Virus record (IMG/VR): IMGVR_UViG_3300032144_000026
Coordinates: 1 to 41,659 of that record
Strand: one strand, 5' to 3'
Length of the DNA: 41,659 nt
DNA from: a virus
Each line of letters starts with the position of its first letter. Position 1 is the stretch's first letter. The notes under the pieces were generated by a model. It did no database searches and was not told the origin of the DNA. It saw only the letters and a program-made list of their open reading frames with translations. This document shows positions 21,587 through 41,659 of the stretch, piece by piece. A program made the position numbers and the translations under genes.

Positions 21587-22081
21587 TTAGAACAGGAAGA
21601 ACAGTCCAATTGGGAGCAATGACATTACAGTCGAGCCAACCGTCTTGGGCCATTTAGTGACATCTGCCGACGTATCGGCTGCCGTCACGTATTCCTCCAT
21701 AAGGCGCATGTGCCTTGCAGCAGTCTTCATGTCCCCACGTTGCACGTAGAACGTGTAGAGTTGCTGGTGCGCCTGCGCCTGTCGCAGCGCCACACACGTT
21801 GGCGATTCAATCGCCCCTGCCAAGGCACCCTGTGCTCCGGTGCCGCTGGCCCCTTCCTGGCACCCCGAGAGCATAATCGCTGCTGACGAGTTCATGGCAG
21901 GTTTCGGGATGTGCGTCGTGCTATGCTGGTTGAGGTACACAGAGGTATCCCCAACTTGGGCACCGGCAGAAGAGCCTGACATTGCCCCAGCACTGCTACC
22001 GGAGGTGGCCTGCGCCGACTGGTCGGCGAAAGCACCTGCGCTCATCGCCAGTACAAGGAGCGCTACCCCAGCCCGGATCAT
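21587..22081 (-). CDS. Secreted or periplasmic protein with an N-terminal signal peptide and a C-terminal hydrophobic anchor
   Basis: Signal peptide MIRAGVALLVLAMSAGAFA|DQ. There is a tandem SGSSAGA(M/Q) repeat and two Cys residues. The C-terminus is VMSLLPIGLFFLF. An ATGA overlap joins it to the upstream gene. Confidence 0.75.
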   Translation of the reverse strand: MIRAGVALLVLAMSAGAFADQSAQATSGSSAGAMSGSSAGAQVGDTSVYLNQHSTTHIPKPAMNSSAAIMLSGCQEGASGTGAQGALAGAIESPTCVALRQAQAHQQLYTFYVQRGDMKTAARHMRLMEEYVTAADTSADVTKWPKTVGSTVMSLLPIGLFFLF

Positions 22082-22464
22082 GGCAGCAGACCCAGGCCGA
22101 TGGTGCCGAAGTTGCCGTTCGCTACGGAACCGCTCAGGCCGCCACCACCGTATACGGACCCGCCTACGGCAGAGCCCAGGGAGCCAGTGTTCGCGTTACC
22201 GCCAGACAGCGAGAAGCTGTTCTGGGTAGCGGCGACGCCGTTGGGGGCTACGACCACTTGGGCCTCGCCACCGCTGACGGTTTGTGCGGCGCTGTTAGTG
22301 CCGACCAGACCGTTGCCAATGGAGGCGCTGCCCCCTTGGACGCCAGCGCTGGACAGGGAACCGCTACCGACTTGACCAGTGCCCCCGAACAGGTTGATGC
22401 TTGCTGCTTGGGCGCCTGCGGACAGGGTCAGGGCAACAGCAGCAGCGATAAGTGCTTTTTTCAT
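22078..22464 (-). CDS. Secreted Gly/Ser/Asn/Gln/Ala-rich protein (128 aa)
   Basis: Signal peptide MKKALIAAAVALTLSAGAQA|AS. The mature part has no Lys, Arg, Asp or His and a single Glu. AGGAG RBS. Confidence 0.75.
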   Translation of the reverse strand: MKKALIAAAVALTLSAGAQAASINLFGGTGQVGSGSLSSAGVQGGSASIGNGLVGTNSAAQTVSGGEAQVVVAPNGVAATQNSFSLSGGNANTGSLGSAVGGSVYGGGGLSGSVANGNFGTIGLGLLP

Positions 22465-22560
22465 TGGTGTAACTCCTAGCTAGGATTTAGGCCCCCGGCA
22501 GAATTGCCATTGGGGGACGCTTAACTGGTTGTACCAGTTGTACCGCTTGGGTACGGGGCC

Positions 22561-22590
22561 ATTATTGCGCACCTGTACCCGTCATTACAA
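22561..22590 (-). promoter_or_regulatory. Weak candidate promoter TTGTAA-N18-AATAAT
   Basis: The reverse complement of 22561..22590 gives this arrangement. It lies about 100 nt upstream of the secreted-protein gene. Confidence 0.25.
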
Positions 22591-22597
22591 CAACTAT

Positions 22598-22771
22598 TTA
22601 ACTCCCATTTACAAAAATTGCTACCATGAAGAGCAGAATCAAACTGATGAGCAGAGTGGTGAGCGTGGTGATCTTACCGCGGAGTTGTTGATTCTCGTAC
22701 TGCAGATCAGCCTTGTCACGCTCGGCCTTTCGGTACGCAAGTTGGAATCGCACATTTTCATTGTTATCCAT
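22598..22771 (-). CDS. 57-aa tail-anchored membrane protein (coiled coil plus C-terminal TM)
   Basis: MDNNENVRFQLAYRKAERDKADLQYENQQLRGKITTLTTLLISLILLFMVAIFVNGS. GGAGAG lies 5 nt upstream of the ATG at 22771. Same architecture and length as 21001..21174. Confidence 0.55.
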   Translation of the reverse strand: MDNNENVRFQLAYRKAERDKADLQYENQQLRGKITTLTTLLISLILLFMVAIFVNGS

Positions 22772-22831
22772 AGCTACTCTCCAGTGTGCCGGGGGTGGCA
22801 CCTATATAGTACCACCGCTGGCACTCTATTG

Positions 22832-23140
22832 CTACAGGGGGTTGTTGCGGATATGCTCTTCTACCAGAAGCAGGTAGCAGCGGAGATCACGTATGTCATC
22901 AATGATCCCTTCCTCATCAATCTTGCCCCCCTCAGAGCAGGCGGCGCCAAAGATGTTGAAGCCGTGTCCCGAGCACTGAGACTCAATGCGGTCCCATTTG
23001 CGGGCCAGCATCATGAAGGCTCCCACGCCCCCACGGCGGCGCCAGCTAGAGCCATACTCTGCATTCTTGATGATCAGGGTGGCGATGTCGTCGCTGGCGA
23101 TCCTGCGCACGCGGTCGTAGTCAGTTTCAACGTAGTTCAT
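22832..23140 (-). CDS. DUF1599/MazG-like all-alpha nucleotide-modification-associated protein
   Basis: KNAEYGSSWRRRGGVGAFMMLARKWDRIE matches my recollection of the DUF1599 pattern (K..dYG.sw...G..g....l..K..R). An ATGA overlap joins it to the HD gene. Confidence 0.55.
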   Translation of the reverse strand: MNYVETDYDRVRRIASDDIATLIIKNAEYGSSWRRRGGVGAFMMLARKWDRIESQCSGHGFNIFGAACSEGGKIDEEGIIDDIRDLRCYLLLVEEHIRNNPL

Positions 23141-23658
23141 TTCAAGTACCTCGAACGGAAGTCGGCAATTACGCACTCGGCCTCAAGCCGGTACAGGGGG
23201 TCATGCTCAATCAGGTTCTGGATATACCCGATGTAGCGCTCCCCCACGGGGATGATGTGGTGGTTCCCCATCTTCAACTCGTCCGTGCATTTCAGCAGGC
23301 CATCCAGGTTGTCTGCCAAATGGAGGAGGTGAAGCTCGGTTTCATCGATATTGGCATGGAGGTTGGGGTGGATGCGCTCGACAGCTTCGCATTCCCTCCG
23401 GTCAATCTCGATGCTTACTTGCACGGGCAGCGCCTTCTTGATCTGGCTTGGGATGTCCCCCACTGCAATCTCGCCCATGTCGTGGGTAAGCGCTGCCAGG
23501 ATCAGGTTGCGGCTGGCCTTGCCGTCTGTAAGGACCAAGATCAGGTTGACCACGTTGAAGCTATGCTCCGCCACGGTCTCCTCCTTGATGGTCCTGACGG
23601 CATGGAACCGCTTAACGATCCCAGCTTCGCGTGCTTGCTTGATGTTATTGAGAAGCAT
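23137..23658 (-). CDS. HD-domain (YfbR/DatZ-like) deoxynucleotide phosphohydrolase
   Basis: RFH...ETVAEHSFNVVNLILVL...ALTHDMGEIAVGDIPSQIKK carries the H, HD and D metal ligands. The start was refined to the ATG at 23658, which overlaps the ThyA-like stop by 14 nt. Confidence 0.7.
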   Translation of the reverse strand: MLLNNIKQAREAGIVKRFHAVRTIKEETVAEHSFNVVNLILVLTDGKASRNLILAALTHDMGEIAVGDIPSQIKKALPVQVSIEIDRRECEAVERIHPNLHANIDETELHLLHLADNLDGLLKCTDELKMGNHHIIPVGERYIGYIQNLIEHDPLYRLEAECVIADFRSRYLK

Positions 23659-24613
23659 GTCTTTTCTCCACTGCTCTAGTGATCCAATCCATCGACGCCT
23701 TTCTCCAATCGTCCGCCTCAATGCACGACGCAAGATGTAGCGCTTCATCGCTATCCCCCTGCTTGTAGGCGTGCCACGACTGGACTAGGGGGGCGACAGT
23801 ACCGTCAAAGAATGGCTCGGCGAAATAGTCCACCTTGCCGTTGCACAGATCAATACAATCTTGGTCAAACGCCTTGTAGTCCTGGACCAAGGGCTGAGGT
23901 TTGGGATACGGCGACCATTCCCAGCTACCAGAGAACTTGCCCTCTAACAGCGGAAAGTGTCTCTCGTAGACATGCAGGTTGTTGGTCAGTTGATACCAGA
24001 AGCCGACCTTCACCCCCAGACGCGCCGCCATGTACTCTTGCAGGATGCTCATATGGACAGCGTTTGCGCCGCATAGACCAAATACTAGATCATTGCTACG
24101 ATTGGTGATGGTGAAGTCCAGCTTACCTTCCACGATCCGGCACATGATGCTAGTGTTGCACGGGTAGTCTAGCCCAGTGCCCCCTAGGTCATTGTAGCCG
24201 TCCCACATTGACAGCACACTGCGCCGGTCCAGGGGGTTCCTTCCAAGGATCTCGCACACGGTGCTGATCTGGTCGTACCCGAAGTGCTGGCGCCAGCGGT
24301 GACCGTAGGCGGCGTTGAATGTAAGACCATCGTCGCTGTAGGTCATCATGTTCTGATTGAACTGCCGGACGAATGCTGTGTCGTTGCGCCCCGCCAGCAT
24401 CCACAAGGCCTCTACCAAGTGGAAGAATGGATTGGCGTTGCGATCCTTGTCAAACAGCACCCTCTCTACTGGGTTACGGAACTCAACGAAGACGGGGGCT
24501 GGCAGTGCCAGAGCCAGACCATTGCGCGTCTCCACCCCTTGTCCAAAGGTCCGGACCATCGGCATAAGCCGATGGTATGCGGATTGGACGTTTCGCGTGC
24601 TGACGTTATACAC
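23645..24613 (-). CDS. Thymidylate synthase-family enzyme; candidate dUMP hydroxymethylase
   Basis: ThyA-like blocks: AYHRLM..V...G, NPFFHLVEALWMLAGRND, LDYPCNTS (Cys nucleophile) and NRSNDLVFGLCGANAVH (aligns with QRS.D..LG.PFNIASY, Asn retained). GTG start. Confidence 0.75.
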   Translation of the reverse strand: MYNVSTRNVQSAYHRLMPMVRTFGQGVETRNGLALALPAPVFVEFRNPVERVLFDKDRNANPFFHLVEALWMLAGRNDTAFVRQFNQNMMTYSDDGLTFNAAYGHRWRQHFGYDQISTVCEILGRNPLDRRSVLSMWDGYNDLGGTGLDYPCNTSIMCRIVEGKLDFTITNRSNDLVFGLCGANAVHMSILQEYMAARLGVKVGFWYQLTNNLHVYERHFPLLEGKFSGSWEWSPYPKPQPLVQDYKAFDQDCIDLCNGKVDYFAEPFFDGTVAPLVQSWHAYKQGDSDEALHLASCIEADDWRKASMDWITRAVEKRHASQ

Positions 24614-25412
24614 GTTCGTAGATCCTCCGACGACCTGGGCCGTCTGTCACGTAGCGCATGAACTTCTGGAACTCGCAGAGGCAGTTCTGTAGGTCCTGCA
24701 TCTCCAGTTCAGGGATGTAGCCCTTGGTGACCCGCTTCAGGTGGCTCAGCCTGTCGTAGAAGGTTGTCTCCGTGGTGCCGGGTCCGTAGAGGATGTCCAG
24801 CCCCTTCTTACTCCCAGGCCCCATAACCGCGAAATCATTCCAGTCGGGGGCGTAGTGGAGGAACTGGTCATGCTTCAGGTCAGCAATGATCTGCCCGCAC
24901 ATGAAGCTGCCCAGCCCGTCAATCTTGCGGAGACAGTCGAACGCCTCCCTGCAAGAGTGGTTGCTGATATACGCCTTGGCCACCTGCTTGATCAAGTCAT
25001 CGCAGTACTCGATCTTGTCCATTGACTTGCCGCAAGTGCTGACAACGTAGGCCGTGTGGAAGACCTTGCCCCCACTGTCCAGGCGGCACTGGAGATACTC
25101 TGGGCCGAACTTGAAGTAGTCCTCTACACTGGGGGCGAAGTTGAAGAGCCGCGCTGCCGTGTAGAACATGGGCCGCTTGTGCATCGCGAGGTCCATCTTG
25201 ATGCGCAGTTCCCGGAGCTCCTTGGTGCCCCGGTCGTCCTCGCGGCGGATGTTGCAGAAGTGATATCGTTGGAGGATTTTATCATCCGTCCACGGGGGCG
25301 GATCCCCCAACTCCCGCGCCAGCCTGATACTGTTACGTTCATTCACCCAGTAGATAAACCGCTCTAGCTTTCCTGCATTAACGTTCATCATCTTCACCTT
25401 TGAAGAAACCAT
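24606..25412 (-). CDS. aGPT-Pplase-like (alpha-glutamyl/putrescinyl thymine pyrophosphorylase family) DNA base hypermodification protein; the start may be the ATG at 25388
   Basis: N-terminal LERFIYWVNERNSIRL...PPPWTDDKILQRYHFCNIRREDDRGT and C-terminal DLQNCLCEFQKFMRY match the family pattern as I remember it. The gene overlaps both neighbours. Confidence 0.6.
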   Translation of the reverse strand: MVSSKVKMMNVNAGKLERFIYWVNERNSIRLARELGDPPPWTDDKILQRYHFCNIRREDDRGTKELRELRIKMDLAMHKRPMFYTAARLFNFAPSVEDYFKFGPEYLQCRLDSGGKVFHTAYVVSTCGKSMDKIEYCDDLIKQVAKAYISNHSCREAFDCLRKIDGLGSFMCGQIIADLKHDQFLHYAPDWNDFAVMGPGSKKGLDILYGPGTTETTFYDRLSHLKRVTKGYIPELEMQDLQNCLCEFQKFMRYVTDGPGRRRIYERV

Positions 25413-26646
25413 AGTGGGCGTCGTCTGACGCTTGCTCTACTTCTGGTGTCGTGACTCCGTGTTGCTGTGACTTACCTCGTGCTAGGTCTAGCACCTGCAT
25501 CGCCACCCACTTACGATCAAACATGGGTAGCAATTCTATGGCATTACTCATTATACGCCGGTAGCTGCCATAATTCAAATTGCACGCTTCTGAGAGCGCG
25601 TAGCCGTATTCCACGGCGCTATAGTGCTGTGGTATGGCGTAGCAGTTCTCCCCCGCCACAAACAGTTCCCCACGGCCTTCTACGTTGGTGCTTATGCCTA
25701 GGGGGCGCACCACCGGCAGCGCACCCTGGATAATGGCATCAACAATTACCCGGTTGAAGTGCCCCCCAATCTGGGAGTATTTCTTGCTCCATGATGGGTC
25801 TACTAAGCAGGTCATGTTCCGGAGAATGGTGTCCCGCTCATCATTGGTCAGGACGCCAAGGTAGTCCATCCCGGTGCGGAGTGCCCGGTCCCACACTCCA
25901 GGCCACTTGTTCTTGTCTGGGCTGGTCAGGTAGTAATAGTCAATGCCCTTTCCGGCGAGTGCCTTTACCACTCCTTCCCTTACGTGGGGCATCGCGGCCA
26001 CGAGCTCTGGTACGTGCTTCCACGCTTTGAAGGTTTGCAGGCTTAGGAAGCCCCTGCGCCTCTTGCTCCAGGCGGTCCAGGATATGTCCGGCGCCTTCTC
26101 CGGCAGATGTTGTGGATTTGGGATAAAGGAACTCGGTACGGAGATATAAGCAGCGGAGTTGAATGCACAGTGATGTACGCAGATAAGGCCAGTCAGGAAA
26201 TGTTGCACGTCGCACAGCCAAGGGTAGGATGCCAAGAAGTTCCCATCGTGGATCACCGCGAGTTGCGTCACGCCAGTCTGATAAAGGATTTCCCAATCTG
26301 TGTTCCCCCGGTTCTCTTTGCGCTTGGTGGGGACAGCGACCTGCCAAATCACTATGTCAAACTGCCGGATCACGGCCATTGCAGTTGTGAGCGCGCGCCC
26401 CCGGTACGGGATGCACTTGTCGTATGGCCAGCTATACCCGCGCCGCTGGTCGTACTCTAGGCCGGTGTAGGGGGATGTCGTGCCGCGCCCCCCGGCCATC
26501 CCGTTGCGGGGGCGATCTTCACGTGGCAGGAAGCAGAGGGTGGTGACTTCATGACCAAGCTCTTGAAGCCCGGCGCAAAGCTGCTCGTTATGATTTAGAA
26601 TTCCACCAACGTCATCCAGTGGATACCATGCAAGTAGGATCTTCAT
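25378..26646 (-). CDS. GT-B fold (GT4-like) glycosyltransferase; alternative GTG start at 26703
   Basis: MKILLAWYPLDDVGGILNHNEQLCAGLQELGHEV is a classic GT4 N-terminus. The C-terminal GGHFNRVIVDAIIQGALPVV resembles the E/D-x7-E donor-binding region. Confidence 0.7.
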   Translation of the reverse strand: MKILLAWYPLDDVGGILNHNEQLCAGLQELGHEVTTLCFLPREDRPRNGMAGGRGTTSPYTGLEYDQRRGYSWPYDKCIPYRGRALTTAMAVIRQFDIVIWQVAVPTKRKENRGNTDWEILYQTGVTQLAVIHDGNFLASYPWLCDVQHFLTGLICVHHCAFNSAAYISVPSSFIPNPQHLPEKAPDISWTAWSKRRRGFLSLQTFKAWKHVPELVAAMPHVREGVVKALAGKGIDYYYLTSPDKNKWPGVWDRALRTGMDYLGVLTNDERDTILRNMTCLVDPSWSKKYSQIGGHFNRVIVDAIIQGALPVVRPLGISTNVEGRGELFVAGENCYAIPQHYSAVEYGYALSEACNLNYGSYRRIMSNAIELLPMFDRKWVAMQVLDLARGKSQQHGVTTPEVEQASDDAHYGFFKGEDDER

Positions 26647-26676
26647 CTTATTGTCCCATGATTTGGGTGGAAGCCA

Positions 26677-26705
26677 ATAGTATTCGCATTTCTCAGACTC
26701 CACAA
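26677..26705 (-). promoter_or_regulatory. Candidate promoter TTGTGG-N17-TACTAT for the modification operon
   Basis: The reverse complement reads ttgtgg agtctgagaaatgcgaa tactat. It lies between the upstream terminator and the ATG at 26646. Confidence 0.4.
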
Positions 26706-26709
26706 GATC

Positions 26710-26735
26710 AAAACCCCGACTAGTGCCGGGGTTTT
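26710..26735. terminator. Bidirectional terminator closing the 184-aa gene unit
   Basis: aaaaccccg actagtgc cggggtttt: a 9-bp stem including the A-run and T-run, 15 nt after the stop of 26751..27305. Confidence 0.75.
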
Positions 26736-26750
26736 GCGCAGCGAGGGGGG

Positions 26751-27305
26751 TTATTCAACTTCAACAACCCCGGCCTTGGTGACGTACCAGACCAGGAAGG
26801 TATGGGCGACTGCTTTGCCCCCGTTGGCCTCGTAGAACTGGTCAACGGTCATGCCGTCCTTGATGCTTGCGAAAATCTTGCCGCGCTTAGACTCAGCTTG
26901 GTACGTGGTCTTGAGTCCAGCATCGGTAAGACGAAGAGTCTGCGAGCCCAGGAAGACATTTGTGACCCGTGGGATTGGGTTGCCTTCTGCATCCAAGCGC
27001 GGTGCTCGAACTTTCTTGACCGGGATAGGTTGTCCAGCCTCGTCCAGAACATTGTTGCCGTCCTCGTCCTTGACGTACTCTACGACCTTCGCAGGCTTAG
27101 GCCGCTTCATCTTGGTTTCACCCTGGACTTGTAGGCCCTCTTCGTCAAGCAGAGGCGAACCGTCTTCATTCCACTGGGGATAAAGCTTGGGTTCTTTGGG
27201 GGCGGTGGTCCGTGGTTTGCGTTCTTTCTTCTGTGGCACTACTGGGGTCTCGGCTGCTTGGGCTTCTTGTTCGAGACCGGCTTCATAATCAGTCATTTTA
27301 GGCAT
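26751..27305 (-). CDS. Lys/Pro/Glu-rich protein with three (D/E)xxG.P(I/L) repeats; monocistronic unit
   Basis: NEDGSPLLDEEG, DEDGNNVLDEAGQPIPV and LDAEGNPIPRV repeats. It is flanked by its own candidate promoter and a terminator. Confidence 0.8.
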   Translation of the reverse strand: MPKMTDYEAGLEQEAQAAETPVVPQKKERKPRTTAPKEPKLYPQWNEDGSPLLDEEGLQVQGETKMKRPKPAKVVEYVKDEDGNNVLDEAGQPIPVKKVRAPRLDAEGNPIPRVTNVFLGSQTLRLTDAGLKTTYQAESKRGKIFASIKDGMTVDQFYEANGGKAVAHTFLVWYVTKAGVVEVE

Positions 27306-27350
27306 CTCTGTGGTGGGAATTTAGTAGCCCGCCTTTTGGACGGTAGTGCT

Positions 27351-27380
27351 ACTATACCATAGTTGGACCATCCGGTACAA
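27351..27380 (-). promoter_or_regulatory. Candidate promoter TTGTAC-N18-TATAGT
   Basis: The reverse complement reads ttgtac cggatggtccaactatgg tatagt, in the 80-nt gap between the SNF2 gene and the 184-aa gene. Confidence 0.5.
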
Positions 27381-27385
27381 CCATT

Positions 27386-28852
27386 TTATTCCTCCTGGCT
27401 TAGGTTAATTCGTAATAAGGCCAGGAATTCAGCTTCGCTTAGGGCCTTAGACAAGCAGGACATCCGGAGAGCCCTCTCAACCCCACAATCCATCATGATG
27501 CGGTACACCGTGACAGCGTCAGCCTTGCTGCCATGCCGGGCGACGCGCAGGTTGGCCTGATAGGTACGCTCCCAGCTTGGGTCGCCCCCAAACCAAATGA
27601 TGTTGGAGCAGTTGTTCTGCAGCCCGTCAATGCCAAGTGCCACGGACTGGGGATGCCCCAGCATCAGGGGGATATGACCTGCGCTGAACATCTTGCAGTG
27701 CGCTACTCCAGCAGCGACGCTAACGCCTCCGCCAATTCTTGGAACATCGTAGCCAAGCCGCTTGTTGATTCGCTCGAAGTCGTGGCGGTAGGCGTAGAGG
27801 CAGAAGGCCGGCTCACCGTCGAGCTCGGTGACGATGTTTTCAAGGGCGTCGAGCTTGGCCTCATGGATTTCAATCCAGGAGTCGTCACCACGCTCGGTGT
27901 CGATGATGGCGCCTTGGGCAAACTGACGAAGCTTGCCCCATAGGACACCTGAGTTGGGGGCCATGACAACGCTATCGCCAAGAACAAGCAGGAACTCTTT
28001 CTTGAGCTCATTGTATTTCTCCCTAAGGTGCGGAGGCATTGGGACCCAAACGGGGACTTCCATGATCGGCATATCATCGTCACCCTCGGAGACGATGGTT
28101 GTGGGGGCGATCTTAGCGGCCACGCGAGCGGCAGCCCCCGGTAGCTCCTCGTATCCGTAGCCGCTTTCGTCCGGCCGCATGTACTGGAACCGGAAGTGGG
28201 TAATGAAACTGCCAAGGTCTTTCCCCAGGTCGGTGATGTAGCATTGGAAGAACAGGTTCTCCAGCTTGCCGGGGCGCGGAGTCCCTGTCATTACGACCCG
28301 ACGGTTGGTGTACGGGAGATAACAGGCCAAGGACTTGGCACGCAGGCTGTTGGAGTCCTTGAAGCCGGTGGACTCGTCGCATACCAGCATGACCCGCTTG
28401 CCCTCAAACCACGCAATGGCATAGGGATTCCCTTTGTACTTCTTGCGCTTAGAGCCGGGATTGGTGCAAATGGGGCCGAACTCCGTACCGATAAGCCCCT
28501 CGTAGTTCATAAGGTAGACGTCAACCTTAGACTCCAGTGCCGCCTTGCGCGCCTTCTCACCGCCATGGACAATGGCATAGGTCAGGTGGGCAAAGTCGTC
28601 CCAGTAGTTGATCTGGTGCGGCCACGAGGTGGTGATCACCCGTAGGGGGGCGATCACCAGCATGCAGTCAACGAGATCTCTTTTCTTCAGGATGTCGTAC
28701 ACCTTCAGAGCTACCGCCGTCTTCCCCCGGCCCGGTTTCAAAAAGAGACGAAAGCCTGGTTCCGTAACGCCCAGCTTCATGCTCTTTAGCTGTAGGGGCC
28801 GTGGCTCGAATCTTGGCTTGGACGTCTCTAAAGGCAATGTCTGAATCGTCAT
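27386..28852 (-). CDS. SNF2/RAD54-family (SF2) helicase
   Basis: Q-motif RPLQ, motif I LKPGRGKTAV, motif II MLVCDESTGFK, and C-terminal QANLRVARHGS (motif VI-like). Confidence 0.85.
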   Translation of the reverse strand: MTIQTLPLETSKPRFEPRPLQLKSMKLGVTEPGFRLFLKPGRGKTAVALKVYDILKKRDLVDCMLVIAPLRVITTSWPHQINYWDDFAHLTYAIVHGGEKARKAALESKVDVYLMNYEGLIGTEFGPICTNPGSKRKKYKGNPYAIAWFEGKRVMLVCDESTGFKDSNSLRAKSLACYLPYTNRRVVMTGTPRPGKLENLFFQCYITDLGKDLGSFITHFRFQYMRPDESGYGYEELPGAAARVAAKIAPTTIVSEGDDDMPIMEVPVWVPMPPHLREKYNELKKEFLLVLGDSVVMAPNSGVLWGKLRQFAQGAIIDTERGDDSWIEIHEAKLDALENIVTELDGEPAFCLYAYRHDFERINKRLGYDVPRIGGGVSVAAGVAHCKMFSAGHIPLMLGHPQSVALGIDGLQNNCSNIIWFGGDPSWERTYQANLRVARHGSKADAVTVYRIMMDCGVERALRMSCLSKALSEAEFLALLRINLSQEE

Positions 28853-29114: not shown

Positions 29115-29754
29115 GGCAATGTCCTCCCTTGCGCCAAGACAATGGGCACCACTGACAAGAGTTGTGGCTTGGAGTGGGGGCGTATGTCTCTTCGTGGTTG
29201 ATGATCTCGATAGTATTGATCAGCTTTACGGTCTCTATCTGCTTTGCCCCTCTGGCATAAGCAGACGGCACCGTGTGCAACGGAATGTCCAAGTAAACGA
29301 ACTCCGTTTCGTAGGCATCCCAGTCGTCTGGTTCTAGGGCCATGTACATGCGACCCTGCTTGGGATGGTCGGGATACACCTTCCCAGACTTCCAGTCTAG
29401 GATATGGCGCACCCCATCTACAGTGTAGCGCAGGTCCACCTTTCCCTTAGCGTAGGCATCAGGGTCGTCATACGCGCATGGCAGCCAGTGACTGTTAACG
29501 GCGATCTCCGCCTCAGGCTCTGGGCTGTACTTGGTCAGATTCTCCATGAATCGCTGCCAAGGGCGGAGCACTTTGTCGCCGTGGGGGAATGCCCCCTTAC
29601 CAAGGAAGAACTCCTCCAGCTTGAAATGGAGCTCGGTGCCGCGCAGGGCGGCAGGCTTGTCAGGCTCACGGTTGCCCAGGACGTATACGTGCTTCCACCA
29701 GAGGGGGCACTTCTCGTACAGGCTGATGCTACTGTAGCTCTGGCACCTTTTCAT
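29101..29754 (-). CDS. PD-(D/E)XK Cas4/RecB-like exonuclease with a Cys cluster
   Basis: There is an N-terminal Cys (YEKCPLWW) and a C-terminal SCQWCPLSWRKGGHC. The core is DLRYTV...ILDWKSGK. The start was refined to the ATG at 29754, an ATGA overlap with the polymerase gene. Confidence 0.75.
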   Translation of the reverse strand: MKRCQSYSSISLYEKCPLWWKHVYVLGNREPDKPAALRGTELHFKLEEFFLGKGAFPHGDKVLRPWQRFMENLTKYSPEPEAEIAVNSHWLPCAYDDPDAYAKGKVDLRYTVDGVRHILDWKSGKVYPDHPKQGRMYMALEPDDWDAYETEFVYLDIPLHTVPSAYARGAKQIETVKLINTIEIINHEETYAPTPSHNSCQWCPLSWRKGGHCRAAP

Positions 29755-31514
29755 TTGGCTGCCTCTGCCCAAGTCTCGCCGATGCCCATAGTCAGGCGCA
29801 TTGGTACGTCGCACGGCAGGGCGTTAGCGGCCTCTACCATAATGCGGCAGATCTCATCCTTGTCGCGCAGCGGGGCGCACAGGTTGATCTCGTCATGCAC
29901 CGTGCCCAGCAGGCGGAAATACCGGGTCACCGACCCAAGGTTCTCCTCTGCGTAGATAATGGCTTCCTTGGTCTGGTCGGCCGACGAACCCTGCACCAGC
30001 AGGTTGAGGGCCTTATAGTCCCAGTTGCGCCCGTTGCTGGGGGGCTCACAATAGCAGAACCGACCCCCCATAGTTTTGATGGGCAGGCCAAGCTGGAACC
30101 GACGCTTGCAATCCCTGTCCAGACGCACAACATCCGGCAAATGCGCTTTGATGGCGTTACGCAGTCCATTAGCGCGTTCGTACGTGCAACCTAGCTTTTC
30201 CGCCAGCAGGGCTGCCCCCATTGCGTACAGTATGCCCAGGAATATGACCTTACTGTCCTTACGGGTTACGTCGCCGCCCACAAGCTCCATAATGAAGATA
30301 TAGGGGTCCATGTCAGGGTCGTCAATAAACGCCTGCATCAGCACGCCATCTTCAAAGTGTGCCGCTACCCGTGGTTCTTGGGCCTTAAAGTCAAAGCTGT
30401 ACCAGACACAGCCCTCGTCCGGCAGGCAGTAGGCCCTCATATTGGGGAAGTGGTCCCCAAAGTAATCCAAGCCCTGTTCATCAGGAATGTTCTGGCCGTT
30501 GGGGGCAGAACTACTCAGGCGCCCGGTGCGCGTGCCGTAGCCATCCTCGTTGCGCACCTGATTGTACTGCGGGTTGATGGTGCCCCCGTTGGCCTCGGCG
30601 TATGCCAGCCACGGTCCCATGAAGGTGCCGGTCAGGGTGGCGTAGGTGGCCCGCGACTTCAGCATAGTCTTGAGTTCCTTGTCCGTTTCCAGGACGCGCT
30701 CAAGGCTTTCCTTGTTGGCAGACAGCCTGCCCGTCGGGGTAAGCAGGAATCCGCTGTACCCGGCCTTCTGCAGCGCCCCCACAAGGTCACGGTCGCTGCC
30801 GGGGTTCAGGTGCGGGCTGTGCAAGCGTTCACGGATCATGTCGTCCAGCTTGTACAACTTGTCCAGCGCCGTGTGGTAGTCGTGGCGCAGGCGCTGTACG
30901 TCAATGCGGATACCCTTGCTCTTAATCTTGGCAAGGATGGGCGCCAGTGTGCGCTCACGGTCATACGGGGGCTGCATCTCCGCCATCTTCTCGAAGCAGT
31001 AGTCATGCAGCCGCTGCGCCATCTCGGTATCGGATTCGGCATACTTGCCGACCAAGCCCCCCGGTGCCCGGCATATATAGGCGCCGCATTGCTTACGACT
31101 ACGGCACTCGGGGACATTGGCCAGGATCCAGTCGTACAGTTCCTGTTGGTCGTCAGGCGGCATACCGAGCCAGTTGGCCGCTAGGTCCTTAAGCCTGAGG
31201 CTGGGGGTGTTCGGGTCAATGAGGTAGGCTTCAAACATTGTGTCGTGGGTTAGAAGGGGGTCGCGCTCTGGCATTCCGAACCAGTACATTGCGACTTCCA
31301 GATCAAACCCGAAGATGTTATGCCCAACGAGCTCCATGTCCCATACACGCTCAAGTTCACGGGCAAACTCTTCCTTAGTACAGTTGTTCTCCGTTGGATG
31401 ACCCCATGCCCAGTAATGGTTAACCCCATTATCACGAATAGAGCAGCCCACAGGCCGCGGAGGAGTTGGGCTTCCATCGACAATGGCCTCTGTTTCAAAG
31501 TCAAGCGAAATCAT
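29751..31514 (-). CDS. Family A DNA polymerase with a 3'-5' exonuclease domain
   Basis: ExoI SLDFETEA and ExoII HNIFGFDLEV. The other motifs are RLSSSAPNGQNIP, motif A DFKAQEPRVAAH, motif B RKDSKVIFLGILYAMG and motif C GTVHDEI. Confidence 0.9.
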   Translation of the reverse strand: MISLDFETEAIVDGSPTPPRPVGCSIRDNGVNHYWAWGHPTENNCTKEEFARELERVWDMELVGHNIFGFDLEVAMYWFGMPERDPLLTHDTMFEAYLIDPNTPSLRLKDLAANWLGMPPDDQQELYDWILANVPECRSRKQCGAYICRAPGGLVGKYAESDTEMAQRLHDYCFEKMAEMQPPYDRERTLAPILAKIKSKGIRIDVQRLRHDYHTALDKLYKLDDMIRERLHSPHLNPGSDRDLVGALQKAGYSGFLLTPTGRLSANKESLERVLETDKELKTMLKSRATYATLTGTFMGPWLAYAEANGGTINPQYNQVRNEDGYGTRTGRLSSSAPNGQNIPDEQGLDYFGDHFPNMRAYCLPDEGCVWYSFDFKAQEPRVAAHFEDGVLMQAFIDDPDMDPYIFIMELVGGDVTRKDSKVIFLGILYAMGAALLAEKLGCTYERANGLRNAIKAHLPDVVRLDRDCKRRFQLGLPIKTMGGRFCYCEPPSNGRNWDYKALNLLVQGSSADQTKEAIIYAEENLGSVTRYFRLLGTVHDEINLCAPLRDKDEICRIMVEAANALPCDVPMRLTMGIGETWAEAAK

Positions 31515-32490: not shown

Positions 32491-33090
32491 TTAGTCGGCA
32501 ATGGCCGCAAGGATGAGGTCTGCGGTGGTAGCGAAGGCTTCCGCCTCTTCTACAGTTTTAACATCGACGATGTCAAACTTCGCCCCCTTGAGGTCATCGT
32601 CCAGGGACTTCAGATACGCGGTGGCATCTTTGTCGCTGCCGACTTGGACGAACAGGATGGTAAGGTCTTCGTCCTTTTCCATGGCCTGAGTGGCGTTGAT
32701 GATGACTTGGGCGGCAGCCGCCTTGTCATCTGGGACGCCATCGGTGAGGACCAGGATGAAGTCCTTTTTGTCGCTACGACCAGCTTGCTCCAGGCTGGCG
32801 GTGAGCGCCTCTGCAAGCGGGGTAGAGCCGCGTGGTGAACGGGTGGCGAACACATCCTTGACCTTATCGGCGGTTACGCCGGTATAGCCGCTGACGTTGG
32901 CGCCGCTGAAGAACAGGACGTCAATGCCGTCGCTGTCCAGTTGTTGCAGATCACGCGCAAATGCAGTGATGGTTTCCTGGGCATAGTCCCAACGGGATTT
33001 GCCCCCACGGCAGTCTTGCTCGCCCATGCTGCCCGATGCGTCGATGGCAACAATGAAGTCATACTCGGACAACGAAGATTTGTCAACCAT
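32491..33090 (-). CDS. von Willebrand factor A (vWA, TerY-like) domain protein
   Basis: MIDAS motif DASGSM, plus a downstream Thr and LVLTDGVPDD. 199 aa. Confidence 0.8.
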   Translation of the reverse strand: MVDKSSLSEYDFIVAIDASGSMGEQDCRGGKSRWDYAQETITAFARDLQQLDSDGIDVLFFSGANVSGYTGVTADKVKDVFATRSPRGSTPLAEALTASLEQAGRSDKKDFILVLTDGVPDDKAAAAQVIINATQAMEKDEDLTILFVQVGSDKDATAYLKSLDDDLKGAKFDIVDVKTVEEAEAFATTADLILAAIAD

Positions 33091-33186: not shown

Positions 33187-33840
33187 TTATTTTTGCATCA
33201 TCCAAAAGACCAGCAGCGTGCGCACTCCATGACGAACCTCGGCACCACGATGGTGAACATGGCGTCCGTTGAAGAAGAGTGCGTGTCCCTTAGGCAATGC
33301 CTCCACGAACACGGTCTCCCCCGCTGGCCCATAGGGGCGAAGATACGTCCCCCCTCCAGTGTGGTGCTCGGGGCCGAGGCTAACGACGCAGGTAAGGTCG
33401 CTTTGCTCGTCTACGTGCCAATCGCTTTTTGCGGTGGCACTCGGTTTGTAGCGCGCCAGCTGAATAGAGCTAACCCGTCCAGGGGTATGACCAGTCATCA
33501 TCTGGAACAGAGGCTCAATACGCTCCTCCATGATACGCATAAGCTCTACAAACGTGCCCTTATCGTGGTACGCCAGCACCAACTCTTCCACTTGATACGC
33601 CCTTTCCTCCTCTTGGTTCACTTGGAACTGGTCCTTGAAGAACTCGGCATAGCTGATCAGTGTTTCGCACTCCTGCTCGTCCAGCACGGGGGCGCTGAAG
33701 ATCATAGGACCATGCTTCTTGATGGGGATATCATCCAGACTATGCAGCTTCCAGATGAGGGGGGCCTTCTCGTAGCCCTTCTCGTTGCAGTCCATGATCG
33801 CGCACTTCATGCGTCCTGCGTACATTTGCAGCGGGTTCAC
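33187..33840 (-). CDS. 2OG-Fe(II) oxygenase, prolyl-4-hydroxylase-like
   Basis: HxD in WHVDEQSD, a distal His and Arg in HVHHRGAEVRHGVRTLLVFW. GTGA coupling to the upstream gene. Confidence 0.75.
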   Translation of the reverse strand: MNPLQMYAGRMKCAIMDCNEKGYEKAPLIWKLHSLDDIPIKKHGPMIFSAPVLDEQECETLISYAEFFKDQFQVNQEEERAYQVEELVLAYHDKGTFVELMRIMEERIEPLFQMMTGHTPGRVSSIQLARYKPSATAKSDWHVDEQSDLTCVVSLGPEHHTGGGTYLRPYGPAGETVFVEALPKGHALFFNGRHVHHRGAEVRHGVRTLLVFWMMQK

Positions 33841-41551: not shown

Positions 41552-41659
41552 GTCGTGCAAGTGTAATGGTGAAATGGGTGTGTGTAATGCTGGGAACCCC
41601 GTACTAGGCACTTCGCACGGGTGGAATTACACTATTACACTTAAACTTAAAAAATATTG
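41533..41659. repeat. Window-end overlap, copy 2 (identical to 1..127)
   Basis: Same 127-nt string as the window start. Confidence 0.97.

Follow-up and report, generated by a model that had tools for sequence, protein, structure and literature searches.

A glycosyltransferase in the kinase position of a thymidine-hypermodification-type operon of an uncultivated phage

Introduction

The pathway of phages M6, PaMx11, ViI, PhiW-14 and SH-Ab 15599 consists of a dUMP hydroxymethylase, a 5-hmdU DNA kinase, a clade-2 aGPT-Pplase (AADT/DADT) and tailoring enzymes, and the DNA modifications of M6 and PaMx11 derive from 5-hmdU (PMC5889632, PMC8989533). What would an operon of this type make if a glycosyltransferase (GT) stood where the kinase is expected? 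The question is raised by the viral record IMGVR_UViG_3300032144_000026, which we analyzed over its full 41,659 nt (hereafter, the window). Bases 1–127 are identical to bases 41533–41659, and this terminal redundancy indicates that the window is the whole genome of an uncultivated phage. Its GC content is 56 per cent, and its portal protein is nearest to that of Stenotrophomonas phage BUCT555 (48.8 per cent identity).

A first-pass annotation had described five chained genes as a self-contained base-hypermodification operon lacking a kinase. The core of that interpretation, a thymidine-hypermodification-type cluster without a kinase for which a sugar-bearing product is favored, stands, whereas the clade given to the pyrophosphorylase-like protein, a DUF1599 label and a promoter do not. 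We lean toward the view that the operon makes DNA in which glycosylated 5-hydroxymethyluracil replaces thymine, in the manner of base J, and that it does so without a phosphorylated intermediate.

Organization of the operon

Families were assigned by Pfam and PHROG scans over 45 ORFs. All five chained minus-strand ORFs are present where they had been reported, in the order GT, PF18723, ThyA, HD and Pam3-gp54 homolog:

25378..26646, minus strand: GT-B (GT4-like) glycosyltransferase, 422 aa (public gene call P0001, 100 per cent identical)
24606..25391, minus strand: PF18723 protein (HMUDK_hel), 261 aa, helix-hairpin-helix glycosylase-like (gene call P0121)
23645..24613, minus strand: ThyA-family protein, predicted dUMP hydroxymethylase, 322 aa, GTG start (Pfam Thymidylat_synt, 76 bits)
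23137..23658, minus strand: HD-domain hydrolase of the YfbR-like 5'-deoxynucleotidase family, 173 aa (PF12917, 61.4 bits; cut-off 25.9)
22832..23140, minus strand: conserved 102-aa protein, homolog of Pam3 gp54, with an ATGA overlap with the HD gene
26709..26736, minus strand: perfect 10-bp hairpin with an 8-nt loop (inverted repeat I1, 100 per cent complementary, CAAAACCCCG / CGGGGTTTTG)
29751..31514, minus strand: family A DNA polymerase, PolA (Pfam DNA_pol_A, 141.6 bits, plus a 3'-5' exonuclease domain)

Starts were chosen by Shine–Dalgarno context and public gene calls, which gave ATG 26646 for the GT gene, ATG 25391 for the PF18723 gene, ATG 23658 for the HD gene and ATG 23140 for the fifth gene; the longest ORFs of the first three extend to GTG 26703, ATG 25412 and 23748, respectively. 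With the preferred starts, the GT and PF18723 genes overlap by 14 nt, as do the ThyA and HD genes. The GTG start of ThyA (24613) overlaps the stop of the preceding gene (24606) by 8 nt, and the ATGA shared by the HD and fifth genes is seen directly at 23137–23140. The chain of overlaps is therefore confirmed, except that a 35-nt GT/PF18723 overlap (25378–25412) presupposes the longest ORF. Judged from the sequence, translation of the GT gene is coupled to that of the PF18723 gene.

The hairpin sits between an upstream gene (26751–27305), just past its stop, and the GT gene. A consensus terminator scan called 0 terminators, this hairpin included, which we attribute to too weak a T-tract; what had been annotated as a terminator at 26710..26735 is a perfect terminator-like hairpin with a weak T-tract. 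A promoter proposed at 26677..26705 matches about 7 of 12 consensus positions when read by eye and is absent from the calls of the consensus scan, and we do not retain it. No terminator was found 3' of the fifth gene and, with the promoter unsupported as well, the operon cannot be called self-contained.

Components shared with 5-hmdU phages

The ThyA-family protein matches PHROG 5131 (E 2e-100) and is 42–44 per cent identical over its full length to its homologs in M6, PaMx11 and Ab18. Across 83 ThyA sequences, the catalytic Cys, a 'PCN' motif and the Asn that specifies uracil do not vary; the set includes M6 gp58 and SH-Ab 15599 gp17, the latter called a dUMP hydroxymethylase in a reconstructed pathway (PMC13458397). 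The specifying Asn aligns with an Asp of the cytosine-specific MilA, and this dCMP-type Asp occurs in none of the 83 aligned sequences. The original ThyA-family label thus holds, and the protein is a ThyA paralog with the residue expected of a dUMP hydroxymethylase.

The adjacent protein had been labeled aGPT-Pplase-like. Pfam assigns it to PF18723 (E 1.2e-33, 117.1 bits with a cut-off of 25; residues 17–254 against profile positions 5–274 of 281), a family formerly named 'aGPT-Pplase clade 1' and now 'HMUDK_hel', and not to PF18724 (ADDT). It also matches PHROG 2396, and its close homologs carry the JGI name 'alpha-glutamyl/putrescinyl thymine pyrophosphorylase clade 1'. The label was right as to a related family, but the proven amino-acid/diamine:DNA transferase is clade 2 (PF18724, 'ADDT') (PMC8989533, PMC11472151, PMC13458397), and the in vitro reaction went ahead without the clade-1 protein M6 gp55 (PMC8989533). 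The current Pfam name rests on association or fusion with the 5-hmdU DNA kinase; the window protein is free-standing beside a GT, and no fusion occurs among the best 150 representatives.

In the structural model of the PF18723 protein (pLDDT 94), the nearest PDB fold is the clade-2 transferase PaMx11 gp46 (prob 0.92, TM 0.44–0.46, E 0.29), with MutY and AlkA coming next. Among the invariant residues are C239-E240-K243, D171 and G191-P192-G193, which are kept in kinase-type relatives; C239-E240 is invariant in 59 GT-type PF18723 sequences and in M6 gp55, Sonora gp42, Pam3 gp50 and 15599 gp16. By sequence comparison, the protein is part of a core common to kinase-type systems, and its invariant Cys-Glu pair suggests catalysis over mere binding.

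The HD hydrolase keeps its earlier label: besides its YfbR-like match, it matches HD_3 and HD in Pfam, contains 'AEHSF...HD' and is homologous to M6 gp59 (E 6e-13) and to the HD gene of another locus (L005). The fifth protein, previously described as DUF1599/MazG-like, is instead a member of a conserved family with Pam3 gp54 (E 2e-23), whose core reads YGxSWxxRGGVGAFMMLARKWDR...DDIRDLRxYLLLVE. When the window protein and 14 homologs were searched, 0 of 15 matched DUF1599 at E <= 10, and none has a Pfam or PHROG family. Among the GT loci, the fifth protein is found in 47, the window included; separately, it occurs in 37 of 47 loci that are of the TAGT type (defined below) or lack a transferase.

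A glycosyltransferase in the kinase slot

In M6, the gene order is gp54 (kinase), gp55 (PF18723), Nmad5, gp58 (ThyA) and gp59 (HD), and Pam3 and Sonora are alike. The window resembles these phages in its homologous ThyA, PF18723 and HD proteins, in their order beside PolA and in its Pam3 gp54 homolog. It differs in having no 5-HMUDK, clade-2 transferase, Nmad5 or PLP, radical-SAM or FAD tailoring gene, and in holding a GT-B enzyme in the kinase slot, as the first-pass annotation had noted.

The absence of the kinase is upheld by several searches of the complete genome. Queries with the Sonora, Pam3 and M6 gp54 kinases gave no phmmer match in the window, a 3-kinase HMM gave none in its six frames, the Pfam and PHROG scans placed none of the 45 ORFs in a kinase family, and neither the window nor the surroundings of the GT in 80 related loci showed a small ORF with an N-terminal Walker-A motif (P-loop). 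These searches also cover the hypothetical ORFs, among which a kinase homolog would have counted against the annotated reading. As a positive control, the same models readily found the kinase in 31 kinase-type loci. Three ADDT queries and one HMM found no clade-2 transferase in the window, and no Nmad5, PLP or radical-SAM gene occurs in the genome. Without kinase, clade-2 and tailoring genes, the operon cannot build an amino-acid or a polyamine adduct by way of 5-PmdU.

The AlphaFold model of the GT (pLDDT 95.6, pTM 0.93) contains the two Rossmann-like domains of the GT-B fold, in agreement with the original label. A Foldseek search of the PDB gave 312 matches with E <= 1e-3, and all 50 matches listed are GT-B enzymes. 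Retaining GT4 enzymes come out on top (7qsg, HepE, BshA and PimA; E ~1e-12), and T4 DNA alpha-glucosyltransferase (AGT) is also matched (1xv5/1y6g; E 3e-10), in a structure solved with HMU-containing DNA. In BFVD, the second match is a glycosyltransferase of Bacillus phage SP-15 (E 4e-14), whose DNA contains a uracil derivative bearing sugars (PMC5977210), and 'DNA alpha-GT' entries are also among the matches. Pfam Glyco_transf_4 scores 21.9 bits on the window GT, under its cut-off of 28.5, and PF00534 or PF13692 is found on some homologs; the EX7E motif of GT4 looks degenerate, apparently H296...D303, in an alignment read by eye. A tblastn search of 50,697 deposited phage genomes found no match to the GT. 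The GT resembles generic GT4 enzymes with lipid or small-molecule acceptors just as closely as T4 AGT, so it is gene linkage that points to DNA as its likely acceptor.

Recurrence of the module

We collected 80 viral IMG/VR loci that encode a GT 33–70 per cent identical to that of the window. PF18723 and ThyA accompany the GT in 74 of them, usually as overlapping or adjacent genes, and ThyA without PF18723 does so in 3 more; an HD gene is found in about 65, and a kinase or ADDT in none. In 79 of 83 loci, a PolA cluster occurs no more than 7 kb from the GT. Overall, 76 related phage contigs carry the module. As 74 of the 80 viral contigs, which are independent, share the arrangement, it is not due to chance and, because the order varies (GT-PF18723-ThyA or PF18723-GT-ThyA) and the genome backbones differ (~41 kb and 60–65 kb), the linkage is selected. 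No PF18723 gene is seen in 6 of the 80 loci. In at least two of these six, and also in locus L003, the GT lies near radical-SAM or methyltransferase-type genes.

A second set of 80 loci was seeded with the M6-like PF18723 protein. It contains the kinase in 31 loci, GT-B in 2 and, in 36, a PF20691 'TET-associated glycosyltransferase' (TAGT; GT-A fold, E 3e-24) between PF18723 and ThyA. No locus of this set combines kinase and GT, or both GTs, and GT-B and kinase co-occur in 0 of all 160 loci. This mutual exclusivity points to three alternative transferases (kinase, GT-A and GT-B) beside one ThyA/PF18723 core, and the presence of two unrelated GT folds in the place of the kinase argues that the GT and the kinase share a target hydroxyl in DNA. 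The linkage, the exclusivity with kinase and TAGT, and a likeness to T4 AGT on a par with that to other GT4 enzymes make a DNA-borne hydroxymethyl pyrimidine the probable acceptor of the sugar.

Relation to known systems

The TAGT class, with PF18723, TAGT and ThyA, is a sister class of the same layout, from which the window differs in having neither TAGT nor TET/JBP. The 5hmC on which the characterized TAGT-type enzymes act is the product of a methyltransferase and TET (PMC8256090), and relatives of this GT-A family glycosylate 5hmC in DNA (PMC8256090; bioRxiv 10.1101/2023.12.21.572611).

T-even phages glucosylate 5hmC with the gp42 dCMP hydroxymethylase and alpha- and beta-glucosyltransferases of GT-B fold. 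The predicted scheme of the window is alike in that a ThyA paralog would put the hydroxymethyl group on a pyrimidine nucleotide ahead of replication, and sugar would be added to the DNA later by a GT-B enzyme, but here the pyrimidine would be uracil (Asn instead of Asp), the GT is GT4-like, and T4 lacks a PF18723 partner.

Base J of kinetoplastids is made by the JBP1/2 thymine dioxygenases and JGT, a GT-A glucosyltransferase. The predicted product of the window falls in the same class, a glycosyl-oxymethyl-uracil in DNA, but its 5-hmU would arise through ThyA at the nucleotide level and not by oxidation of thymines within DNA, and its GT is GT-B/GT4-like. Profile searches found neither TET_JBP nor TAGT in the window, which has no JGT-type GT-A and whose sole oxygenase (33187–33840) matches 2OG-FeII_Oxy_3 (27.7 bits).

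Co-location of genes of this kind has been noted once before, without a mechanism, in metagenome-derived genomes of HTVC023P-type pelagiphages, whose 'partner AMGs' are TS and aG/PT-PPlase1, optionally joined by a 5'-deoxynucleotidase and a putative glucosyltransferase (PMC9599517). That study records the co-location alone and offers no discussion of the absent kinase. Unlike those phages, the window, by its GC content and portal protein, is not a pelagiphage.

Alternative explanations

Unlikely, although the least so of the alternatives considered, is that the GT has a target other than DNA: ThyA, HD and PF18723 would yield 5-hmdU DNA, the GT would modify something else, for instance a host envelope glycan or a virion protein, and a shared early/replication region alone would explain the linkage. 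By structure, the GT is indeed nearest to GT4 enzymes from pathways of lipids, polysaccharides and small molecules, the six GT loci without PF18723 include three that also lack ThyA, and base-modification genes are not beside most phage GT contigs (bioRxiv 10.1101/2023.12.21.572611). A shared region is hard to reconcile with linkage as tight as 74 of 80 loci across backbones and gene orders, with strict exclusivity with the kinase, with the finding that a third set of loci has an unrelated DNA-type GT-A at this place, and with the translational coupling of the GT and PF18723 genes in the window.

Rather improbable, too, is that the sugar serves as an activating and leaving group: the Cys of the PF18723 protein would attack C6 and expel the sugar via an exocyclic methylene, to which a nucleophile or hydride would add, giving another adduct or thymine. 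This equals the second option of the first-pass annotation, in which the pyrophosphorylase-like enzyme uses a different activated intermediate, and it presupposes an activity that nobody has demonstrated for clade 1, where M6 gp55 is dispensable in vitro (PMC8989533). The invariant C239-E240 in GT-type and kinase-type sequences alike and the fold match to clade-2 gp46 speak for it. So do alignments read by eye, in which LCEFxK resembles the catalytic LCKWK of clade 2 (Cys247; PMC11472151) and both clades share an HhH-like GxGxF...AD motif, and the statement that a route from 5-hmdU to thymidine is not known in these phages (PMC5889632). Profile–profile comparison of clades 1 and 2 gave no signal and so lends no support to an equivalence of the Cys residues, and no donor-tailoring gene (PLP, rSAM or FAD) accompanies the module. 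A glycosyl oxygen is also, as a matter of general chemistry, a far poorer leaving group than phosphate.

We consider it very unlikely that ThyA makes 5-hmdCMP in a T4-like cytosine system, with the GT, if it acts on DNA, glucosylating 5hmC, or that ThyA is a plain thymidylate synthase making dTMP. Although the CMP hydroxymethylase MilA is the best PDB sequence match of ThyA (E 8.5e-17), and PHROG and many records name these genes just 'thymidylate synthase', the Asn at the specificity position is that of dUMP enzymes, 15599 gp17 has the 'PCN' motif too (PMC13458397), and the full-length identity is to enzymes of M6 and PaMx11 (PMC5889632, PMC8989533). The cytosine reading also has to contend with PF18723. 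To our knowledge, that family occurs solely in 5-hmdU systems.

Least plausible of all is a canonical pathway whose kinase and transferase were missed as too divergent or come from the host or a co-infecting element: about 20 window ORFs have no family in the Pfam and PHROG scans and 5-HMUDK is divergent (the Pam3 kinase reaches only E 2e-7 on PF18748), but the genome is complete, it lacks ADDT too, no small Walker-A ORF was found, and the same models recovered the kinase readily elsewhere.

Proposed pathway and significance

The operon most likely yields 5-hmdU that bears a sugar. In the pathway that we propose, the ThyA-like enzyme would convert dUMP to 5-hmdUMP, as its homology and active-site residues suggest. 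By analogy with other 5-hmdU phages, the HD 5'-deoxynucleotidase-like enzyme would shift the nucleotide pool away from dTMP and dTTP, possibly joined, on analogy only, by the fifth protein. Host kinases would supply 5-hmdUTP for incorporation by the phage PolA. After replication, the GT-B enzyme would move a sugar from the host NDP-sugar pool onto the 5-CH2OH of 5-hmdU in DNA; no sugar-activation genes were found in the window genome. The GT is probably retaining, and an alpha-linkage is hence probable. The PF18723 protein would most likely recognize or flip 5-hmdU, serving whichever transferase is present (kinase, GT-A or GT-B). T4 glucosyltransferases flip the base unaided, so the need for such a partner is not obvious. 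For the phage, the expected gain from glycosylated 5-hydroxymethyluracil in its DNA would be resistance to host restriction.

Genome and module organization

Bases 1–127 of the window are identical to bases 41533–41659, and the window is therefore a complete phage genome of ~41.5 kb (about 41,532 bp), with either a direct terminal repeat or a circular assembly. Structural genes (TerL, portal, major head protein, and tail fiber) are on the plus strand, and the replication block (SNF2, VRR-NUC, PD-(D/E)XK, PolA, and a DUF5906 primase/helicase) is on the minus strand. The nearest isolate by portal protein is Stenotrophomonas phage BUCT555 (48.8 per cent identity). The module region, which is similar in GC content to the remaining genome, has no megablast match among 50,697 phage genomes. 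Likely starts of its five genes were chosen from public gene calls and ribosome-binding-site context.

Genes of the module
25378–26703, minus: glycosyltransferase (GT), longest ORF; likely start ATG 26646, 422 aa (public gene call)
24606–25412, minus: PF18723 protein, longest ORF; likely start ATG 25391, 261 aa (public gene call)
23645–24613, minus: ThyA homolog; start GTG 24613
23137–23748, minus: HD protein, longest ORF; likely start ATG 23658
22832–23176, minus: fifth protein, longest ORF; likely start ATG 23140

The chain of five overlapping minus-strand ORFs described in the first-pass annotation is borne out by these coordinates. With the likely starts, the junctions overlap by 14, 8, and 14 nt and by an ATGA at 23137–23140; with an overlap at all four junctions, the five genes are translationally coupled. 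The terminator proposed ahead of the module corresponds to a real structure, a perfect 10-bp hairpin (26709–26736) found by inverted-repeat search directly past the upstream gene, but a consensus scan of 22400–27500 called no terminator. The proposed promoter is a weak match at which the consensus scan made no call, and we do not retain it.

The gene directly upstream (26751–27305, minus) encodes a Lys/Glu/Ala/Pro-rich protein of no family that is conserved in the four closest relatives only. In GT-type genomes resembling phage Pam3, the equivalent position encodes another protein, of 239 aa and with a tail rich in KAE (L005:8145–8864, in a viral contig of that type); both may be DNA-binding proteins. 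Just downstream of the operon, two overlapping genes (21587–22081 and 22078–22464, minus) encode small proteins with signal-peptide-like N-termini and Gly/Ser/Ala/Asn-rich bodies, neither with a Pfam match; they are possibly secreted proteins, envelope proteins, or accessories of lysis. Within the replication block, a von Willebrand factor A domain protein adjoins a 2OG-Fe(II) oxygenase (32491–33090 and 33187–33840, minus); the oxygenase matches 2OG-FeII_Oxy_3 at 27.7 bits and has no TET/JBP match.

Proteins of the module

Sequence evidence for the GT is weak (Pfam Glyco_transf_4 at 21.9 bits, under the cut-off), and some of its 303 homologs (E ≤ 0.001) carry PF00534/PF13692. Its AlphaFold model has a GT-B fold at high confidence (pLDDT 95.6), in agreement with the original GT-B label. 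Retaining GT4 enzymes are its closest structural neighbors, and T4 DNA alpha-glucosyltransferase is also matched; among viral models, a phage SP-15 glycosyltransferase ranks second, and 'DNA alpha-GT' entries are also present. A tblastn search of 50,697 deposited phage genomes returned no match to the GT. Proteins annotated as 'Methyltransferase FkbM' in BFVD (787 and 936 aa) match the GT fold, and an FkbM-family-like methyltransferase (motif VLDIGANIGxFS) is encoded within a few kb of the GT in 24 loci (e.g. L049:7052–7771), a hint that the sugar may be methylated.

The ThyA homolog, placed in the right family from the start, has 42–44 per cent full-length identity to the ThyA homologs of phages M6, PaMx11, and Ab18. 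The catalytic Cys, the 'PCN' motif, and the uracil-specifying Asn, which aligns with an Asp of the cytosine enzyme MilA, are invariant in 83 ThyA sequences, including M6 gp58 and SH-Ab 15599 (15599) gp17, a pattern that fits a dUMP hydroxymethylase. The HD protein is indeed YfbR-like (Pfam, 61 bits) and is homologous to M6 gp59. The fifth protein belongs to a well-conserved small family homologous to Pam3 gp54 and matches no Pfam or PHROG model; its earlier DUF1599/MazG-like label was rejected, as none of 15 family members matches DUF1599. The window has no homolog of 15599 gp18, a proven dTTPase/dUTPase, and the role of the HD and fifth proteins in dTTP exclusion therefore stays an analogy.

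The second protein matches PF18723 at 117 bits. This family, whose members are named 'alpha-glutamyl/putrescinyl thymine pyrophosphorylase clade 1' by JGI, is now 'HMUDK_hel' in Pfam; the genes annotated 'aGPT-Pplase1' and 'Pplase2' in Pam3 and Sonora correspond to PF18723 and PF18724, respectively. The initial aGPT-Pplase label needs a qualification: the protein belongs to clade 1 and not to clade 2 (PF18724, 'ADDT', amino-acid/diamine:DNA transferase). Clade 2 transfers glycine, serine, putrescine, or diaminopropane to phospho-5-hydroxymethyl-dU (5-PmdU) via a catalytic cysteine (PMC8989533, PMC11472151, PMC13458397).

The PF18723 protein is modeled as all-helical (pLDDT 94), and its best PDB fold match is the clade-2 protein PaMx11 gp46, at a weak level (probability 0.92, TM ~0.45), followed by MutY and AlkA; sequence and profile searches of PDB gave nothing meaningful. 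A C-E-x-x-K motif (C239, E240, and K243) is invariant in the aligned GT-type PF18723 proteins and also present in the kinase-type relatives, and the invariant Cys-Glu hints at catalysis. Because hhalign of the clade 1 alignment against three clade-2 sequences gave no signal, a tentative equivalence of C239 to the catalytic Cys247 of clade 2 draws only on motif resemblance and the weak fold match. Aligned with the window protein, the kinase-type proteins (M6 gp55, Sonora gp42, Pam3 gp50, and 15599 gp16) have about 50–60 additional residues (e.g. 'RAESDPSKEWYSWTKHRYIAEIVLGRLWEDRE'), which the shorter GT-type protein lacks and which could form a partner-specific surface.

The PF18723 family comprises 4,706 representative clusters at 50 per cent identity, not all of them GT-linked. 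Among the best 150 of these representatives, there are no fusions to GT or to other domains, and all are stand-alone bar two with short extensions. In a rough neighbor-joining tree, the four kinase-type sequences are apart from deep GT-type clades, a sample too small to give the direction of replacement. Apparent second PF18723 copies in nine loci are artifacts (low-complexity alternative-frame ORFs).

A glycosyltransferase in the position of the kinase

In M6, the gene order is gp51 ADDT, gp52 PLP, gp53 radical-SAM, gp54 5-hydroxymethyl-dU (5-hmdU) DNA kinase, gp55 PF18723, gp56 Nmad5, gp58 ThyA, gp59 HD, and PolA, and Pam3 and Sonora have the same module gene order. Compared to these phages, the window retains PF18723, ThyA, HD, and the Pam3 gp54 homolog, whereas a GT is found in the kinase position. 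Six-frame searches of the window with the Sonora and Pam3 kinases, with M6 gp54, and with a three-kinase HMM found no kinase, and family scans of 45 window ORFs likewise detected none. There is also no small Walker-A ORF and no homolog of ADDT, Nmad5, PLP, or radical-SAM genes in the window, confirming the reported lack of kinase, PLP, and radical-SAM genes. Since the window is a whole genome, all of these genes are truly missing as far as these methods can see.

The same arrangement recurs among the 80 loci (33–70 per cent identity) recovered from IMG/VR with a GT alignment. PF18723 and ThyA are both present in 74 of the 80 loci and ThyA in three more, while HD and the fifth gene occur in about 65 and 43, respectively. 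None of the 80 encodes a kinase, ADDT, Nmad5, PLP, or radical-SAM protein within 10 kb of the GT, or a small P-loop candidate near it. When neighboring ORFs were clustered, only GT, ThyA, PolA, PF18723, and HD were near-universal, and no alternative kinase family emerged. Two or more unrelated types of genome carry the module, among them ~41-kb contigs like the window and 60–65-kb Pam3-like genomes (e.g. L005), and its gene order differs between these two, which argues for selection on the linkage itself.

A few contigs (23–115 kb; L003:8111–11377, L054:6960–11359, and L037) carry distant GT homologs (35–36 per cent identity) without ThyA and PF18723. These precede DNA polymerase and follow radical-SAM/SPASM and methyltransferase genes in L003 and large unannotated genes in L054; they may represent a different modification context. 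A 134.7-kb viral contig (L015:7253–11320) has ThyA, an HD gene, two small ORFs, and GT, followed by an 832-aa ORF where L003 has a UDG-PolA fusion. It has no PF18723, so GT and ThyA can occur together in the absence of the clade-1 protein.

With M6-like PF18723 as the seed, a second scan gave 80 further loci.

Composition of the PF18723-seeded loci
Kinase: 31 of 80 (ADDT also present in 23 of the 31)
Conserved 265-aa protein between PF18723 and ThyA: 36 of 80
GT-B: 2 of 80
No kinase, 265-aa protein, or GT-B: 11 of 80
Kinase plus GT in one locus: 0 of 80
Both GT types in one locus: 0 of 80

The 265-aa protein is a 'TET-associated glycosyltransferase' (PF20691, E = 3e-24) and falls in the GT-A family to which the base-J glucosyltransferase is related; its phage relatives glycosylate 5hmC in DNA (PMC8256090; bioRxiv 10.1101/2023.12.21.572611). 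From these counts, the ThyA and PF18723 core pairs with exactly one hydroxyl-derivatising enzyme (kinase, GT-A, or GT-B), with HD and the small protein as optional members.

The 36 loci with PF18723, PF20691 GT-A, and ThyA (L118–L164 and others, e.g. L145:10810–11604) constitute a third module class, with no kinase and no TET gene, that is probably the class noted in pelagiphages. Across the 47 kinase- and GT-B-free loci, the small-protein homolog occurs in 37 and the HD gene in 17, and a pyrimidine-dimer DNA glycosylase homolog (PF03013, E = 6e-10; e.g. L134:2697–3185) is immediately upstream of PF18723 in 27, which are of the PF20691 type.

Proposed pathway and the role of PF18723

Homology and context suggest, in our view with slightly better than even confidence, that the module produces glycosyl-5-hmdU. 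The ThyA homolog would turn dUMP into 5-hmdUMP, and dTMP/dTTP would be kept out of the pool, with the HD and small proteins as candidates by analogy to other 5-hmdU phages, which have dTTPase and nucleotidase activities (PMC13458397). PolA would build 5-hmdUTP into DNA, where the GT would then glycosylate the 5-hydroxymethyl group with a host NDP-sugar as donor. The first-pass interpretation is partly supported: its core, a hypermodification operon that lacks the kinase, holds, with the clade-1 qualification for the Pplase; its DUF1599 and promoter claims fail.

The weak point of this mechanism is the role of PF18723. A 5-hmU-recognizing or base-flipping partner would fit both its being linked to each kind of transferase in turn and the fusion of kinase to a PF18723 domain in SP10 gp186 (PMC5889632, Table 3); M6 gp55 is not required in vitro (PMC8989533). 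Alternatively, but in our judgment improbably, PF18723 itself has cysteine-dependent enzyme activity on DNA bases and acts on glycosyl-5-hmdU as clade 2 does on phospho-5-hmdU, with the sugar as the leaving group and thymine or a further adduct as the product. In that case the shared catalytic core would be PF18723, with kinase, GT-A, and GT-B as three interchangeable 'activators'. The route from 5-hmdU to thymidine in these phages was stated to be unknown by Lee et al. (PMC5889632), and we suggest, purely as a long-shot speculation, that PF18723 could carry out this conversion or else a substitution; were the product thymine, PF18723 would be the long-missing enzyme that turns 5-hmdU back into T in these phages.

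Implications

Parts of this association have been seen before. In metagenomic genomes of HTVC023P-type pelagiphages, TS and aG/PT-PPlase1 were described as 'partner AMGs', accompanied in some cases by a 5'-deoxynucleotidase and a putative glucosyltransferase; the missing kinase was not noted and no mechanism was proposed (PMC9599517). GT-B-like phage GTs often have ThyS as a neighbor (Pyle et al., bioRxiv 10.1101/2023.12.21.572611). Our literature search found no paper in which a phage makes glycosylated 5-hmdU by the ThyA route, and none that reports clade-1 activity.

GT-type systems are abundant, many of them on complete 40–65-kb genomes and none among deposited isolates. The module could easily be tested, since its five small genes, UDP-sugars, and 5-hmdU DNA as substrate would suffice. 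It may yield a new DNA glycosyltransferase for 5hmU labeling, explain restriction-resistant metagenomic phage DNA, and offer a way to study the clade-1 'Pplase' protein and 5-hmdU processing in DNA. Experimentally known thymidine hypermodification follows only the route from kinase through phosphoester to amino acid or polyamine. Alongside it, the module points to another branch, widespread and phosphate-free, where the kinase is replaced by a glycosyltransferase of either fold. Such a branch predicts that phage DNA carries a base-J-like glycosyl-hydroxymethyluracil whose precursor is made at the nucleotide level.
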